DNA of 64,000 bases, taken from positions 432,334 to 496,333 of the forward strand of contig CAZTCI010000002.1 of the NCBI GenBank assembly GCA_964612665.1, read 5' to 3'. The notes under the pieces were generated by a model, which had not been told where the DNA came from, searched no databases, and worked only from the letters and a program-made list of their open reading frames with translations. The translations under genes and the position numbers were made by a program. Each line of letters opens with the position of its first letter. Position 1 is the first letter of the stretch. Shown here in pieces: positions 10,968-25,985 of the stretch. Source of the DNA: an uncultured Planctomycetales bacterium (GTDB lineage: Bacteria; Omnitrophota; Gorgyraeia; Zapsychrales; JAHFFX01).

Positions 10968-11582
10968 CTAGTCCTTACTAAAATGGTCTTTTGGAAAACT
11001 AAATTTTTTGGTGCGGCGTTGTTTTTGAAGACGACCTTGTAAGTCATTATTGATGTTCACTTCTGGAGCATCTACTGATGCTTTAAAACCTTGATGGTTA
11101 GTACTGGTTGGAGATTGGATGCCGCCGTTAAGAGGTGCTTTTTTCAAAGATTCTTCCAAGTTAGTTGGAGGTTGAAATTTGCCGCTTATATCCATACCTT
11201 CGTCTAAGTCACTTGTCAACTTTATTTGCGGTGCTTGAAAACGGCTTTGGGGAAGTTTTCGATTTGGATCTTTTACAACATTAGGCAGATTAATCGGTGC
11301 AGGCGGCTGTTCATCAGAAACCTCTTTCTCAGCTTCTAGTTCGGCCAAAAATGCTTTGCGTTCTTCGGGGTAAGACTCTTCCCAAGAGAAACCATATTCC
11401 TGTTCAAAACGTTTTTGATTTAAGAATGACAGCCCTTGCATGGATTGAATTTGAGGGGAAGTTTGTTTACTTATACTTGGATCGGCGAAAAGGAGCTTAA
11501 CTGAAAATAAAAGTCCACAACCGCTCATCGCCAAGATCAACAAGTTTTTTAATTTAAGCTGATTAAATTGGGTTGATTGCAT
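10968..11582 (-). CDS. Secreted low-complexity hypothetical protein
   Basis: Signal peptide, P/Q/E-rich and probably disordered, no recognisable domain. Confidence 0.4.
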   Translation of the reverse strand: MQSTQFNQLKLKNLLILAMSGCGLLFSVKLLFADPSISKQTSPQIQSMQGLSFLNQKRFEQEYGFSWEESYPEERKAFLAELEAEKEVSDEQPPAPINLPNVVKDPNRKLPQSRFQAPQIKLTSDLDEGMDISGKFQPPTNLEESLKKAPLNGGIQSPTSTNHQGFKASVDAPEVNINNDLQGRLQKQRRTKKFSFPKDHFSKD

Positions 11583-11688: not shown

Positions 11689-12348
11689 TCAATCAGTGAT
11701 GTGATGTTTAATGACTTTTCCGTCGACCATGTAAATGATATCTTCGCAAATATTGGTCGAATGATCAGCAACTCTCTCCAAATTCTTAGCAACTAAAACT
11801 AGATCAATAATCCGTTCAACGGATGACTGATCTTCAACTTTGCAAGCCAATAATTCCATAAAAATTTCATGGTCTAGATCATCGACTTCGTCATCCCGCT
11901 TGCAGACCTCATAAGCTAATTTTGAGTCTTTAGTAACAAAGGCATTAAGACTATCGCGCAGCATTCCTTGCGCGGCTTCCGCCATTTTAGGGATGTCGAT
12001 TCGTAACTTTAAAGGCGGCACTTTAATTAAATCTAATGTCCGCTGGCCAATATTCACAGCCAAATCACCAATTCTTTCCAGGTCATTATTAATTTTTAAA
12101 GTCGATGTAATAAAGCGTAAATCTCCTGCGGTCGGCTGATAAAGTGCCAGAAGTTTTAAACACAAATCATCAATTTCAATTTCAAGCATGTTGATTACAT
12201 CATCGGACTTAATTACTTTATAAGCTAATTCTGAATTGCGGTCGATCAATGCTTTAATTGAAGTGCTGATGCTCTCTTCAACCAATCCGCTCATGCGTAA
12301 AAGTTTTTCTTTAAGATGATTGAGCGCCTCGTCAAAATGTCTTTCCAT
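11689..12348 (-). CDS. phoU: Phosphate signalling regulator PhoU (copy 1)
   Basis: Two PhoU repeats (DLERIGD / NLERVADH motifs), 219 aa. Confidence 0.9.
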   Translation of the reverse strand: MERHFDEALNHLKEKLLRMSGLVEESISTSIKALIDRNSELAYKVIKSDDVINMLEIEIDDLCLKLLALYQPTAGDLRFITSTLKINNDLERIGDLAVNIGQRTLDLIKVPPLKLRIDIPKMAEAAQGMLRDSLNAFVTKDSKLAYEVCKRDDEVDDLDHEIFMELLACKVEDQSSVERIIDLVLVAKNLERVADHSTNICEDIIYMVDGKVIKHHITD

Positions 12349-12478
12349 AATTATTTCCTTGCTGTAATTATAGCTTAAAGTTTAAAGTATACGATTTTCA
12401 ATTTCATTTTTTTAATAATGCTTAATCAATGATACACAAGGCATCAAAATACTAACCAAAACGCCCAGGAATATAATC

Positions 12479-12703
12479 ATTAACGCCGTGTGCGAGTTTC
12501 AATAAAGCAAACCTTTGAGTTTCAAAAGATCACGGTTTAATTCCAAGTTCAAAAAGATACCACAGGTATTTACGAATAAGGCGGTTGCTCAAATGCCACA
12601 GGCGCCCTCCTTTCGTTTTGGGTTACTTTAGTCAGTTCCCATTTTAGCGTTAGGAGGGTTTCTTTTTTACTTTATTCAGGAAAAACTCGCACACGGCGTT
12701 AAT
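12479..12703. mobile_element. 225-bp non-coding element bounded by perfect 21-bp inverted repeats (MITE-like or IR-flanked sRNA locus) between phoU and phoR
   Basis: ATTAACGCCGTGTGCGAGTTT at 12479-12499, exact reverse complement at 12683-12703; no ORF; internal CCCTCCT/AGGAGGG stem followed by a T-tract. Confidence 0.5.
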
Positions 12704-12755
12704 TGTTAAATAAATATTATGATTTAATTAAAAAATTTAATGTTTGGATAGGAAT

Positions 12756-14120
12756 TTAGCTAGGACAAACAGGAAGGAAAATTGAAAAAGTAGAACCAGC
12801 TTGAGGCTCGCTTTCAACCGAAACTTTGCCTTGATGCAGTTGAACAATATGTTTGACGATAGAAAGTCCTAAGCCCGTGCCGCCAAGCTCTCTTGAACGG
12901 CCGCGGTCGACTCTGTAAAAACGTTCAAAAATACGTGGCAAATGTTCAGACTCAATGCCAATGCCCGTATCCTTAACATCAATTTGAATAAAACCATTTT
13001 GTTGAATACTGTTAATGATGATAGAACCGCCCGGGGGAGTAAATTTGATGGCGTTATCGATTAAATTAAAGAAAACTTGTTCTATTTTATTCCGGTCAGC
13101 CAGAATAGAAGGTAACTCTCGCGCCAGCTTTAAATGAATATTCAGTTTTTGATTCTCAAAACGTTCTTTATATAAGTTGAGTATCGCTTCCAAAAATGCA
13201 TTCACAGAAATCTTTTCACGGTTTAATTTAACTTCACGCGACTCAATAGCTGATAAACTTAACAAATCATTCACTAAATTTTCCAAACGTTCCGTATGCT
13301 TAGCGATGATCTCTAAGAATTTAATTGCGCTCCCTCGATCATTAATCGCCCCTTCTTTCAAGGTCTCAACAAATCCTTTAATTGTAGTTAAAGGCGTTTT
13401 AAGCTCATGAGAAACGTTTGCGACAAATTCTGAACGCAATCGGGCCAGCTTTTTAAGTTCAGTAATATCATGAAAAACCGCAACGACACCCAAAAGATAG
13501 CCTGACTCTAAAACAACCGATGAAACCTGAACACTAAAATGCGTTTCTTCCGGTGAAATAATGGTTAGTTCCCGCACCAGTGAACTTTTTGTGGCCATGG
13601 CCTCTTTAATAAAAGAATTAATCTCCTGATGTCGGATGACTTCCCAATACGGCCGGCCGATTGTTTCACGTGAACGCAGTTCAAGCATCGTATAAACCGG
13701 CGCATTCAAAAGCAAAATGCGTTCATCTTTTCCAACGACAATAACGCCCTCAATCATGCTGGAAACAATCGCTTTAATTTCGCTTTTGTCGCGGATTGTT
13801 TCTTTAACCCGGTTTTGCAACTCGATAGACATCTGATTGAGATTATCGGCCAACTCGCCAAATTCATCTTTATGACTTAAGCGAATATGCTCCTGAAAAT
13901 TTCCTTGAGCCAAATTTTCGATGATTTTCTTAATTTCTTGTATGGGTTTTTGGAAAATTCTCCAGGAGGCAAAACTAACCGCGCAGGTCAGCAGGACACC
14001 GAAGATTATTAAGACAGGGTAATTTGAAAACGAAGGTTGTATAAGTAAAACGAAGATTAAAATTCCAAATTGGATAACAACAAGGTTAATAAAAAATAAA
14101 TTACGTTGAACCTTATTCAT
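12756..14120 (-). CDS. phoR: Phosphate-regulon sensor histidine kinase PhoR-like (TM, PAS, HisKA, HATPase)
   Basis: H-box VSHELKTPLT, N/G-box ATPase motifs; probable start at the ATG at 14120, overlapping the phoB stop. Confidence 0.85.
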   Translation of the reverse strand: MNKVQRNLFFINLVVIQFGILIFVLLIQPSFSNYPVLIIFGVLLTCAVSFASWRIFQKPIQEIKKIIENLAQGNFQEHIRLSHKDEFGELADNLNQMSIELQNRVKETIRDKSEIKAIVSSMIEGVIVVGKDERILLLNAPVYTMLELRSRETIGRPYWEVIRHQEINSFIKEAMATKSSLVRELTIISPEETHFSVQVSSVVLESGYLLGVVAVFHDITELKKLARLRSEFVANVSHELKTPLTTIKGFVETLKEGAINDRGSAIKFLEIIAKHTERLENLVNDLLSLSAIESREVKLNREKISVNAFLEAILNLYKERFENQKLNIHLKLARELPSILADRNKIEQVFFNLIDNAIKFTPPGGSIIINSIQQNGFIQIDVKDTGIGIESEHLPRIFERFYRVDRGRSRELGGTGLGLSIVKHIVQLHQGKVSVESEPQAGSTFSIFLPVCPS

Positions 14121-14814
14121 CGGAGTCTTCCAACTCTTTAAAACGATAACCAACACCACGCACTGTCTCAATCAAATCTGCCGCGTCATCCAATTTTTTA
14201 CGAAGGGCGCGGATATGTACATCAACCGCCCGGTCAACAATATACTTCCCGTCCTTCCAAACCTTATCCATAATTTGATCGCGGCTAAAAACCCGACCTG
14301 GGTAACGGGATAAAAATTCCAAGATATTAAATTCAATGGTCGTTAAATCAATTGACCGGTCTTTATAGGTGATCTTATGTTTCGGTAAATCTATTTTTAA
14401 GAATCCAATTGCGCGGACTTGGTCAGGCATGGCCTTTTCTGACAACCGGCGCATCACAGCTTTAATACGGGCATTAAGAACTTTGGGGCTGAAAGGTTTC
14501 GTAATGTAATCATCGGCACCTAACTGCAACCCGACGACAACATCGGCCTCTTCACTCTTGGCGGTTAAAAAAATAATCGGTATTTTACTGCTCTTGGGAT
14601 CTTGTTTAATGATACGGCAGGTTTCTAAACCATCTATGCCTGGCAACATCAAATCTAAAAGGACAAGCTCGGGCGTTTCTTTGCTTATAATTTCTAAGGC
14701 CTCTTCACCACTCGCCGCCGAAATCACATGATAACCTTCGCGCTCAAGATTATATCGAACCAACTCAATAATGTCTTTTTCATCCTCGATGATTAAAATC
14801 TTTGCTTTGGCCAT
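14113..14814 (-). CDS. phoB: Phosphate-regulon response regulator PhoB (OmpR family)
   Basis: MAKAKILIIEDE receiver, winged-helix C-terminus; start taken at the internal ATG at 14814. Confidence 0.85.
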   Translation of the reverse strand: MAKAKILIIEDEKDIIELVRYNLEREGYHVISAASGEEALEIISKETPELVLLDLMLPGIDGLETCRIIKQDPKSSKIPIIFLTAKSEEADVVVGLQLGADDYITKPFSPKVLNARIKAVMRRLSEKAMPDQVRAIGFLKIDLPKHKITYKDRSIDLTTIEFNILEFLSRYPGRVFSRDQIMDKVWKDGKYIVDRAVDVHIRALRKKLDDAADLIETVRGVGYRFKELEDSDE

Positions 14815-14908: not shown

Positions 14909-15559
14909 TTAAATTTTATGATGCTGAATCGCTTTGCCCTCAACCATGAATATCACGTCTTCCCCAATGTTCGTTGAAAGATCAGCGATGCGTTCCAGAT
15001 TGTGAGAAATCCTGATCAAATGTAAAGCCCGTTCAATTGTGGTCACATCGGAAATCATGTAGGTTAAAAGTTCGCGAAAGATTTGCTCAGCTAAACGGTC
15101 CACTTGCGAATCCCGGCCGCAGACATTTTTAGATAAGGAAGCGTCCTCGTTGATAAAAGCATCGATGCTGTCTTTTACCATCCGGACAGTTAATTCAGCC
15201 ATTCGCGGGATATCAATAAGCGGTTTTAGAAGCGGTTTGGAAATTAAAAAAAGACTGCTTTCGGCAATATTCACACCATGGTCCGCCATGCGTTCCAAAT
15301 CTTTATTGATTTTATAAATCATCATAACGGTGCGCAGGTCTTTGGCCTTTGGTTCATACTGCGCCATCAAATGGATACACATTTCTTCGAGTTCCGAATC
15401 ATAGGCATTAGCTTTGATTTCATCTTTGTAAATAACAGCATCCAATAATTCTTTTTCTCTATTCAAAAGCCCTTTAATGCTTTTATCAATTAAATTTTCA
15501 ACAAGCGTGGCAGAGGTGATCAGTTCTTTTTTAAGTGCGTTTAGTTTGACGTCGAGCAT
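14909..15559 (-). CDS. phoU: PhoU (copy 2)
   Basis: Two PhoU repeats, 216 aa, immediately downstream of pstB. Confidence 0.9.
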   Translation of the reverse strand: MLDVKLNALKKELITSATLVENLIDKSIKGLLNREKELLDAVIYKDEIKANAYDSELEEMCIHLMAQYEPKAKDLRTVMMIYKINKDLERMADHGVNIAESSLFLISKPLLKPLIDIPRMAELTVRMVKDSIDAFINEDASLSKNVCGRDSQVDRLAEQIFRELLTYMISDVTTIERALHLIRISHNLERIADLSTNIGEDVIFMVEGKAIQHHKI

Positions 15560-15606: not shown

Positions 15607-16464
15607 TTAACCAAATTTTCCCGTCAAATAAGCTTCCGTGCGTTTGTCCTTTGGAACTGTAAACATTTTTTCGGTGTTGCCGAATTCAATGAGCTCTCCT
15701 AAGTACAAAAACGCAGTAAAGTCTGAAACGCGGGCGGCTTGCTGCATGTTGTGGGTGACAATGATAATGGTGTAATCATTTTTCAATTCAAAAATTAATT
15801 CTTCAATCTTTGCTGTTGCGCCCGGATCCAAGGCTGAACAAGGTTCGTCCATTAAAATAACTTCCGGCCCGATAGCCAACGCCCGGGCGATACAAAGACG
15901 CTGCTGCTGCCCGCCGGAAAGCGCCAAAGCCGATTTGGAAAGATGGTCTTTGACCTCATCCCATAACGCCGCGCGCTTAAGACTTTTTTCGACAATTCCA
16001 TTTAAAGTATCTCTGTCTTTAATGCCGATAATCTTTAATCCATAAACGACATTTTCATAAATGGATTTTGGAAACGGCGTTGATTTCTGAAAGACCATGC
16101 CGATCCGTCGGCGCAGTGCGACCACATCGGTATCGCGATTGTAAATATCTTTACCGTCAATTAATATCTCGCCTTCCATTCGGCTGCTGGGGATCAGATC
16201 ATTCATGCGGTTAAAAGTCCTAATCAGTGTAGATTTACCACATCCGGAAGGACCGATAAGCGCGGTCACCTTTTTACTGGCGATATCAATTGAAATGTTC
16301 GATAAGACTTTGAGCTGGCCATAATAAAAATTTAAATTCTTAACCGCTATTTTGACCGCATCCGGTGCCGTTGTTTTGGAGTCTTCTTTCTGAGTCTTCG
16401 GTGTGGCAAAAACGGGGTTGGCTTTATTTGCAGTTGACAATTTTTTTTCTTCTGTTTTATTCAT
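15607..16464 (-). CDS. pstB: Phosphate ABC transporter ATP-binding protein PstB
   Basis: NLNFYYG, Walker [18 protein letters not shown] signature; about 35-aa N-terminal extension. Confidence 0.9.
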
Positions 16465-25423: not shown

Positions 25424-25733
25424 GGTAGTTAAGAAATTGTAGTCGTTCGTTCTTTAACTTTTAAAAAGGTAAACTACTTCGAAAGAGTAGGACCCCTGAA
25501 CCACGTTCGGTTTCAGGGCTTTGAACTTTTCTAGTTCAAAGCCCGTGAATAATTCGTGGGACAGGGCCCTAAACCCAACGTAGTTTAGGGACAAAGCCGT
25601 GAGCCTAATTTTCTTTTATAGAAATATGGTTGTCTGGCTGCCGTTGTCGATAACGTGATATCGATTGTTTTGGTAAGCACGGGTTCTTGGTCCCTTCTTT
25701 CGAAGTTCAATACCTTAAAAGGGGATTAAGAAA
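25424..25733 (+). promoter_or_regulatory. Highly structured 5' leader, candidate riboswitch with c-di-GMP-I (GEMM)-like P1 (GNRA) and P2 (tetraloop-receptor) pieces split by about 95 nt of extra hairpins
   Basis: At least 6 consecutive hairpins; G-U wobble pairs form only on the plus strand. 25467-25493 resembles the GEMM 5' half (GGUAAACUACUUCGAAAGAGUAGGAC); 25588-25629 resembles GGGAC-AAAGCC...CCUAA...UAUGG. Confidence 0.35.
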
Positions 25734-25985
25734 ATGCGAAAAATTATTAGCATGACCTGTGCTGTTTTTCTTTTAAGCAGTCTAAATTTGAATGCCGCTG
25801 TAACACGAGATGTCGCTTACCATGTTGCGGTCATTATTCCCCCGCACGTTGATACAGCTGTTCTTAATTATTTTCAACCTGAAAAAAACGATGCCAAAGC
25901 GGCCGACGACGATTTTGTCATCACAACTGAAAAGGTCATCCGGAATAAAAAACCGGTTATCATACAGACAATAACTACGAAATGA
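25734..25985 (+). CDS. Small secreted protein (83 aa) of unknown function
   Basis: GGGGA RBS about 9 nt upstream of the ATG, signal peptide MRKIISMTCAVFLLSSLNLNA. Confidence 0.55.
   Translation: MRKIISMTCAVFLLSSLNLNAAVTRDVAYHVAVIIPPHVDTAVLNYFQPEKNDAKAADDDFVITTEKVIRNKKPVIIQTITTK

Follow-up and report, generated by a model that had tools for sequence, protein, structure and literature searches.

A probable internal-deletion remnant of an IS982-family IS at a rearrangement junction between phoR and phoU in an uncultured Omnitrophota lineage

Results

The element in the phoR–phoU spacer

The spacer between the phoR-like and phoU genes of the window (the whole 64-kb stretch of DNA that was analysed) contains an element of 217 bp, which is very probably what an internal deletion left of an IS982-family IS in an Omnitrophota genome, situated on a rearrangement scar, and not a new RNA gene. 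Its transposase-sense strand is the - strand, on which both phoR and phoU are also encoded. The features of the spacer and its neighbours, with the evidence for each, are as follows.

11689–12348, - strand: phoU paralogue, the second PhoU gene of the locus and downstream neighbour of the spacer (Pfam PF01895, E 9e-52)
12452–12481, - strand: relic of the pstB 3' end, NDYIPGRFG and stop codon (86% identity over 29 nt to the first pstB of relatives, L085–L088)
12474–12482, no strand: putative 9-bp target-site copy on the phoU side, TAATCATTA on the + strand (overlaps the N-D-Y codons of the pstB relic)
12483–12699, - strand: probable non-autonomous IS982-family element of 217 bp, a MITE-like internal-deletion derivative (homology to both ends of the full-length copy L064)
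12483–12499, no strand: right terminal inverted repeat (IRR), ACGCCGTGTGCGAGTTT on the + strand (inverted-repeat search)
12499–12601, - strand: 3' remnant of the transposase gene (translation and alignment to the C-terminus of the L064 transposase)
12604–12682, - strand: IS leader, the 5' UTR of the lost transposase gene (alignment to L064)
12605–12670, - strand: parts of the leader, namely the A-rich tract (12659–12670), the anti-SD CCCTCC (12653–12658), inner stems and the Shine–Dalgarno (SD) GGAGGG (12605–12610)
12683–12699, no strand: left terminal inverted repeat (IRL in the IS sense), ACGCCGTGTGCGAGTTT on the - strand (exact core in public loci; IS982 IR consensus)
12700–12708, no strand: putative 9-bp target-site copy on the phoR side, TAATTGTTA on the + strand (family-wide TAA-NNN-TTA repeat)
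12756–14171, - strand: phoR-like histidine kinase, upstream neighbour of the spacer (Pfam HAMP, PAS, HisKA and HATPase_c)

The genes around the spacer are all oriented on the - strand, in the order pst permease genes, pstB (15607–16464), a first phoU (14909–15559), a phoB-like response regulator, the phoR-like kinase, the spacer of 407 nt, the second phoU, a gene for a 204-aa protein, a HAD hydrolase gene and an NAD-kinase-like gene. The location between phoU and phoR, given by an earlier sequence-only reading of this DNA, was confirmed by the PhoU-domain gene on one side and, on the other, by the HAMP-PAS-HisKA-HATPase kinase that follows the response regulator. Two PhoU-domain genes are thus present at the locus, one after pstB and the other after phoR. 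The 204-aa ORF (10968–11582, - strand), placed directly 3' of the second phoU, had no Pfam match; it was found in Logan assemblies of the same organism and was missing between phoU and the NAD kinase in the related loci L089 and L093. Elsewhere in the window, a match to the c-di-GMP-I riboswitch (25555–25645, 35.7 bits relative to an Rfam gathering score of 35) was detected on the + strand amid genes lying nearly all on the - strand, the sole + strand ORF downstream of it encoding 83 aa (25734–25985).

The perfect 21-nt inverted repeat from which the sequence-only reading had started, ATTAACGCCGTGTGCGAGTTT at 12479–12499 with its exact reverse complement at 12683–12703, was found again on both arms; in 100 shuffles of the window that preserved dinucleotides, the number of matches expected by chance was 0, also when up to 3 mismatches were tolerated. 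The 183-nt interior, described earlier as free of ORFs, contained none longer than 38 aa. The sequences of the reported stem and T-run were likewise present, with CCCTCCT at 12605–12611, AGGAGGG at 12652–12658 and TTTCTTTTTT at 12659–12668 in the + strand reading. Neither a second copy of the element nor an IS982 transposase gene was found in the 64-kb window, and a tblastn search of the window with the transposase of L064 gave a sole match, the 3' remnant inside the element. The same spacer was recovered, in the same orientation, from three Logan assemblies (SRR12313477-79).

Ends shared with a family of insertion sequences

A 19-nt core, TTAACGCCGTGTGCGAGTT, containing the first 16 nt of the element end, was scanned in a genome collection with one genome per GTDB species. 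The exact core was present at 30 loci, relative to an estimated chance expectation of about 4 matches, and at 50 further loci in JGI/ENA metagenome contigs; no match was found in viral contigs. Ten contigs of a single Candidatus Omnitrophota MAG and 9 of a single Planctomycetales MAG were among the 30 genome loci; in the former, the core was mostly located at the contig end, as is typical of multicopy repeats that break assemblies. The other carriers were further Omnitrophota MAGs, a Fimbriiglobus MAG, a Pseudomonadota-labelled MAG and the isolate Victivallis vadensis. In every locus, the core was located at a sharp boundary, with unrelated DNA outward and one of a few recurrent types of sequence inward.

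In ten different loci, two such ends were 989–1050 bp apart around one intact ORF of about 290–300 aa, and an eleventh locus (L067) had paired ends without an intact ORF. The ORF of L064 scored 199.8 bits on the NCBIfam model NF033520 'IS982 family transposase' (cut-off 130) and also matched Pfam DDE_Tnp_1_3 (PF13612) and DDE_Tnp_1 (PF01609); a 60-aa fragment from L032 matched NF033520 as well. Full copies measured 989–1050 bp from AC to GT, with the ORF starting at about nt 100. Members of the IS982 family have a mean length of about 1 kb (845–1282 bp) and a single transposase gene starting about 50–185 nt from the left end (PMC7335449). Their IR consensus is 5'-AC(N)6T(N)5TT-3' and their direct repeats are 2–10 bp long (PMC7335449). 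At both ends of the window element, ACGCCGTGTGCGAGTT parses as AC-GCCGTG-T-GCGAG-TT, an exact fit to this consensus, and both 17-nt ends are identical to those of full-length IS copies. The parent element agreed with the IS982 family in its transposase model, its length and gene layout, its IR consensus and its direct-repeat range. Judged by these sequences, the parent is an IS982-family IS of about 1 kb with 17-nt ends ACGCCGTGTGCGAGTTT, a leader of about 100 nt and a predicted DDE transposase of about 294 aa. The first 16 nt of the end were constant across the fetched copies (exact or with at most 3 mismatches), in which transposases were as low as 54% identical.

Many unrelated short elements bounded by these ends were found in Planctomycetales and Omnitrophota MAGs. 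Elements of 123–184 bp with the same IS982-type ends occurred in L006, L016, L018, L026, L028 and L033, all from one Planctomycetales MAG (CAYHTV...), and additionally in L010, L027 and L036. Their interiors were unrelated to the IS and held many nested palindromes (GTGTCATTGCGAGG...GAAGCAATCTTT...). They form a MITE family that is truly amplified, and their target duplications of 9 bp are mostly perfect. Another MITE family, independent of the first but with the same transposase-binding ends, is represented by elements of 86–120 bp in L008, L024 and L030 (Pseudomonadota-labelled MAG, JBDRGF...), in which the ends surround one or two GGGGCAGGTTTTAAACCTGCCCC hairpins. In Victivallis vadensis DSM 14823 (L029) and in human gut metagenomes (L040, L055 and L079), the 19-nt end precedes a GC-rich sequence that is identical across these loci and resembled neither the leader nor the 3' end of the IS. 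In metagenome contigs L035, L039, L042, L049, L053, L054, L057, L065, L071, L074 and L081, many of them with the end located at the contig end, the same end is followed by TTTCTCATATCGCGACAGAGATTCCGACTACCGC...; this type, which often truncates contigs, probably represents one more multicopy element that shares these ends.

Target-site duplication and true boundary of the element

With the published AC end taken as the boundary, the IS runs from ACGCC... to ...GGCGT, and a direct repeat of 9 bp with the palindromic form TAA-NNN-TTA lies on either side of it. Among 26 non-redundant element pairs, this repeat was perfect in 10 and matched in at least 8 of 9 positions in 15. Deviant forms of the TTA/TAA triplet (TAG in L018 and L033, CTA in L080, TAT in L056) recurred in the opposite 9-mer, and since both copies of the 9-mer carry the same deviation, TTA/TAA must be target DNA and not part of the IS. 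With flank positions numbered outward from TTAACG, the logo showed T in 71 of 84 flanks at -6, A in 70 at -5 and A in 59 at -4, and a (T/C)TAA signal was located four to seven bases outside TTAACG. Two other models of the duplication were considered and rejected. A 3-bp duplication flanking TTAACG...CGTTAA was exact in 16 of 29 pairs, and the 9-bp model with a start at AC was preferred because it agrees with the AC end in the literature and explains why apparent mismatches in the outer 'TTA' recur in the opposite flank; a 7-bp model, judged by eye, was inconsistent.

The 21-bp repeat of the window is accordingly composed of the 17-nt transposon end, 3 nt of the palindromic target duplication (TTA/TAA) and 1 chance pair. 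The two window 9-mers, TAATCATTA and TAATTGTTA, both obey the TAA-NNN-TTA form and match in 7 of 9 positions, with 1 match at the 3 informative central positions. As these 9-mers differ in their centre, they do not show that the 217-bp derivative moved as such.

Perfect inverted repeats of about 20 bp around a non-coding segment of about 180 bp, directly upstream of a gene, are also the anatomy of an invertible DNA switch (inverton), in which a promoter segment flipped by a site-specific recombinase would make phoU expression phase-variable. This reading is extremely improbable here: a transposon family that encodes a DDE transposase has these repeats as its ends, the same repeats bound the ~1-kb IS copies and the unrelated short elements at scattered loci, and the orientation was constant in four assemblies, i.e., the window and the three independent Logan assemblies. 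The constant orientation and the transposon nature of the repeats led to its rejection.

The interior of the element and the supposed small RNA gene

The window element was compared with L064, the closest full-length copy, using BLAST and pairwise alignment. The alignment was numbered on the - strand from 12702, the TTA of the 9-bp repeat being included, which gave a stretch of 223 nt (12480–12702). Nucleotides 1–99 of this stretch were 90% identical to the left end of L064 and nucleotides 102–223 were 79% identical to its last ~133 nt. The alignment covered both ends of L064 and nothing else, and it accounted for the whole window element. About 765 nt between the aligned ends are missing, including the entire catalytic region of the transposase. 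The first ~95 nt of the IS, i.e., the leader through the Shine–Dalgarno AAGGAGGGC and short of the ATG, were kept together with the last ~105 nt. The deletion junction lies at about 12603/12604, just before the position of the ATG, and reads GGAGGGC|GCCTGTGG; the same junction was not found elsewhere among about 95 fetched loci. On the 3' side, about 33 transposase codons remain, encoding LWHLSNRLIRK and, after a frameshifting deletion of 11 nt, TCGIFLNLELNRDLLKLKGLLY followed by a stop codon (TGA, 12499–12501), for comparison with the C-terminus ...LWHLSNRIIRKILSHTFGVFLNLQLNRDPLKLKGLLY* of the L064 transposase.

The CCCTCCT...AGGAGGG stem with its T-run had been read as consistent with a small RNA gene nested between the inverted repeats, which would be transcribed from the + strand and end at the CCCUCCU...AGGAGGG hairpin and U-run. 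This remains a very improbable explanation. In its favour, the hairpin is followed by UUUCUUUUUU on the + strand (12605–12668), and the + strand fold was very stable (-80.9 kcal/mol, z = -8.3); this z score and the -7.2 obtained for the - strand are, however, to be expected of every element whose two ends are complementary over 20 bp. No Rfam family was found in the spacer at E ≤ 1, nor did a scan of the whole window at gathering thresholds place any family there, and a tRNA/tmRNA scan gave no hits. No + strand promoter-like site was detected in 12200–12900. The hairpin has an interior of about 40 nt, which is not terminator-like, and it was not called by a terminator scan. Moreover, the homology to the IS accounts for all 217 bp, and the hairpin with its A/T-run was part of the IS leader in 12 of 12 aligned leaders, where it is explained on the opposite strand. 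The supposed terminator is therefore the antisense reading of an IS leader hairpin, its U-run being the complement of the preceding A-rich tract, and the claim of a small RNA gene was not upheld.

On the sense (-) strand, CCCTCC (12653–12658) pairs with the transposase Shine–Dalgarno GGAGGG (12605–12610). Folding predicted a hairpin that pairs the Shine–Dalgarno for the window element and for each of 10 full-length leaders of the family. This hairpin was extended and closed by the Shine–Dalgarno pairing in 9 of the 10 leaders and in the window, the hairpin of L072 being shorter and local. The 6 outer anti-SD/SD pairs were kept in 12 aligned leaders, apart from single mismatches in one divergent member. 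Compensatory double changes from C-G to U-A were observed at 2 pairs and the A-rich tract was conserved in these 12 leaders, several of which are close relatives. RNAalifold recovered the outer 6-bp anti-SD/SD stem only; the inner stems were seen solely in single-sequence folds, because indels misalign them in the alignment.

IS10 and IS50 are protected against outside transcription because their read-through RNA folds back and pairs its ribosome-binding site. By analogy, the hairpin described here may mask the transposase ribosome-binding site in read-through transcripts entering from outside. The window-type leader resembles those of IS10/IS50 in having an upstream segment complementary to the transposase Shine–Dalgarno, with compensatory changes; it differs in belonging to another IS family, and the mechanism is suggested here by structure only.

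Relatives of the locus and the relic of pstB

Homologues of the second PhoU with 82–89% identity came from sources named as Omnitrophica/Omnitrophota MAGs, which places the host in this phylum, and their loci (L084–L098) were compared with the window. In L089/L090, phoR is the upstream gene, the spacer to phoU measures 16 nt and the synteny is phoB-phoR-phoU-NAD kinase-CbiX-MutY. In L097/L098, phoR is also upstream, with a spacer of 66 nt, and in L084 the spacer between phoR and phoU contains an extra gene of 180 aa. In L085–L088 and L091–L095, two tandem pst ATPase genes are located upstream, with spacers to phoU of 23–116 nt. Homologues of the second phoU thus follow phoR in some loci and two tandem pst ATPase genes in others, so that the region upstream appears as a rearrangement hot spot in this Omnitrophota clade.

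The IS end was absent from the loci L084–L098 even when five mismatches were allowed. The comparison of orthologous phoU-phoR spacers, which the sequence-only reading had proposed as a check on mobility, thus revealed the element in neither the phoR-phoU nor the pstB-phoU spacers of these relatives, and the element is lineage-specific, as expected of a mobile insertion. No exact empty site was recovered: apart from the pstB relic, the spacers of the relatives did not align with the window flanks, because the relatives are too distant (84–89% identical in PhoU).

The relic adjoins the element on its phoU side and reads AAT GAT TAT ATT CCT GGG CGT TTT GGT TAG on the - strand, which corresponds to the last 9 codons of pstB and the stop codon; the C-termini of PstB in the relatives read ...RTNDYISGRFG*. 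It lies 103 nt upstream of phoU, comparable with the 116-nt pstB-phoU spacer of L093. The flank on the other side consists of the 47 nt 3' of the phoR stop codon. As one flank is phoR 3' DNA and the other a relic of pstB, the two sides come from different original sites. The earlier description of an insertion upstream of phoU consequently had to be modified, as the element sits downstream of phoR at a rearrangement junction and does not represent a clean insertion.

From the sequence of the two flanks, it may be proposed that the element marks an IS-mediated deletion or recombination which joined phoBR to phoU with the loss of a pstB copy. The predicted order before the rearrangement would be phoR ... 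pstB-phoU, in which TAACAATTA, the N-D-Y codons of pstB or both of these sites carried an IS copy. Two IS copies, one downstream of phoR and the other in these codons, could have recombined; alternatively, a single IS copy could have made an adjacent deletion by intramolecular transposition. Either route would remove pstB and whatever lay between. In the order of events that we infer, an internal deletion extending from just before the start codon to about 135 nt before the right end would have removed the transposase gene, and the second deletion, of 11 nt, would have followed within the 3' remnant of the transposase. The resulting 217-bp remnant would be movable only by a transposase supplied in trans, as neither of its ends is damaged or departs from the family consensus. 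A join of the flanks free of the element, produced by excision or representing an empty allele, would read TAATNNTTA.

Discussion

The sequence-only reading had offered a MITE as one interpretation of the element. This interpretation was supported by the IS982-family ends, by an interior made of two IS ends and by the absence of the element from relatives; it was weakened by the single copy of the 217-bp derivative and by a target duplication matching in only 7 of 9 positions. In the manner of a MITE, the element is 217 bp long without a transposase gene, its longest ORF having 38 aa, it possesses ends identical to those of full-length IS copies and it shows a presence/absence polymorphism at orthologous sites (L084–L098). 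On the basis of its sequence, the element is best filed as a putative non-autonomous (MITE-like) deletion derivative of an IS982-family IS, of which one copy was seen in the 64-kb window and the fetched loci.

The parents of the element resemble the IS982 family as reviewed by Fayad, Kallassy Awad and Mahillon (2020, PMC7335449) in their length, in a transposase of about 294 aa starting near nt 100, in the IR and in the 9-bp repeat, whereas the window holds two ends only and no transposase. The table of 70 members in that review (PMC7335449) does not include the sub-group from Omnitrophota, Planctomycetota, Victivallis and environmental MAGs, which is distinguished by a near-constant 16-nt end and a clear palindromic target preference, TAA-NNN-TTA. 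A literature search for IS elements in Omnitrophota returned nothing specific to this phylum. MITEs derived from IS982 are already known, and what is new here is a member in another phylum. In Cardinium, MITECca01, MITECca02 and an eroded 250-bp copy of ISCca4 are transposase-less elements of about 240–250 bp with the inverted repeats of their IS982 parent; one of these derivatives keeps a 3' piece of the transposase and was read as an early stage of MITE birth (PMC9769881). The window element has exactly the anatomy of the Cardinium derivatives (PMC9769881), but MITECca01 is abundant in one genome while the window element is a single known copy, and no sequence relationship between them extends beyond the family.

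The identification of the element as an IS982 remnant is compatible with, and not opposed to, its co-option to regulate the phoU paralogue downstream, which we consider unlikely though conceivable. Two forms of co-option may be imagined. The remnant could provide an outward hybrid promoter on the - strand, TTGAAA-18-GATTAT, which spans the right boundary of the element with its -35 (TTGAAA, 12497–12502) in the right end and its -10-like hexamer (GATTAT, 12473–12478) in the flank. Alternatively, the stable 20-bp terminal duplex could be processed in read-through RNA from phoR or attenuate transcription, as in Correia and ERIC elements. The Correia elements of Neisseria and the ERIC/IRU elements of enterobacteria are short, bounded by inverted repeats, situated between co-oriented genes and co-transcribed with them; long RNA duplexes can arise from their ends, which can also contain promoter elements, and effects on RNA have been demonstrated. 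To our knowledge, no autonomous parent of the IS982 type exists for them, and they differ from the window element in their ends and target (TA for Correia) and in having hundreds of copies per genome.

Apart from this boundary-spanning site, co-option is favoured by the - strand RNA (12470–12712), which folds at -78.1 kcal/mol (z = -7.2), and by the separation of genes that lie 16–66 nt apart in relatives. IS982-family members are also documented to create hybrid or outward promoters (PMC9330008, PMC7335449). On the other hand, promoter-like sites were no more frequent than in shuffled sequences (2 found vs 2.0 ± 1.6), the -10 matches in only 4 of 6 positions of a consensus that may not be that of Omnitrophota, and a strong fold is a trivial consequence of the inverted ends of any transposon. 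Any present effect of the element on phoU expression is one that we infer. As a more far-reaching and distinctly unlikely conjecture, the remnant may have been retained to uncouple the second phoU from phoBR after the loss of pstB, through the hybrid promoter and/or duplex processing, and its 16-nt end may define a large, undescribed IS982 sub-family that seeds independent MITE families in Omnitrophota and Planctomycetota.

The element explains the unusually long phoR-phoU spacer and removes a candidate small RNA and terminator from consideration. It records a rearrangement, presumably IS-mediated, that destroyed a copy of pstB in the Pho locus of an uncultured Omnitrophota lineage. The IS982 sub-group to which it belongs is common in the MAGs of Omnitrophota and PVC bacteria and breaks their assemblies, and its description, comprising the 16–17-nt end, the TAA-NNN-TTA target, the leader hairpin pairing with the Shine–Dalgarno and the derived MITEs, is usable for the annotation of these genomes and the joining of their contigs.
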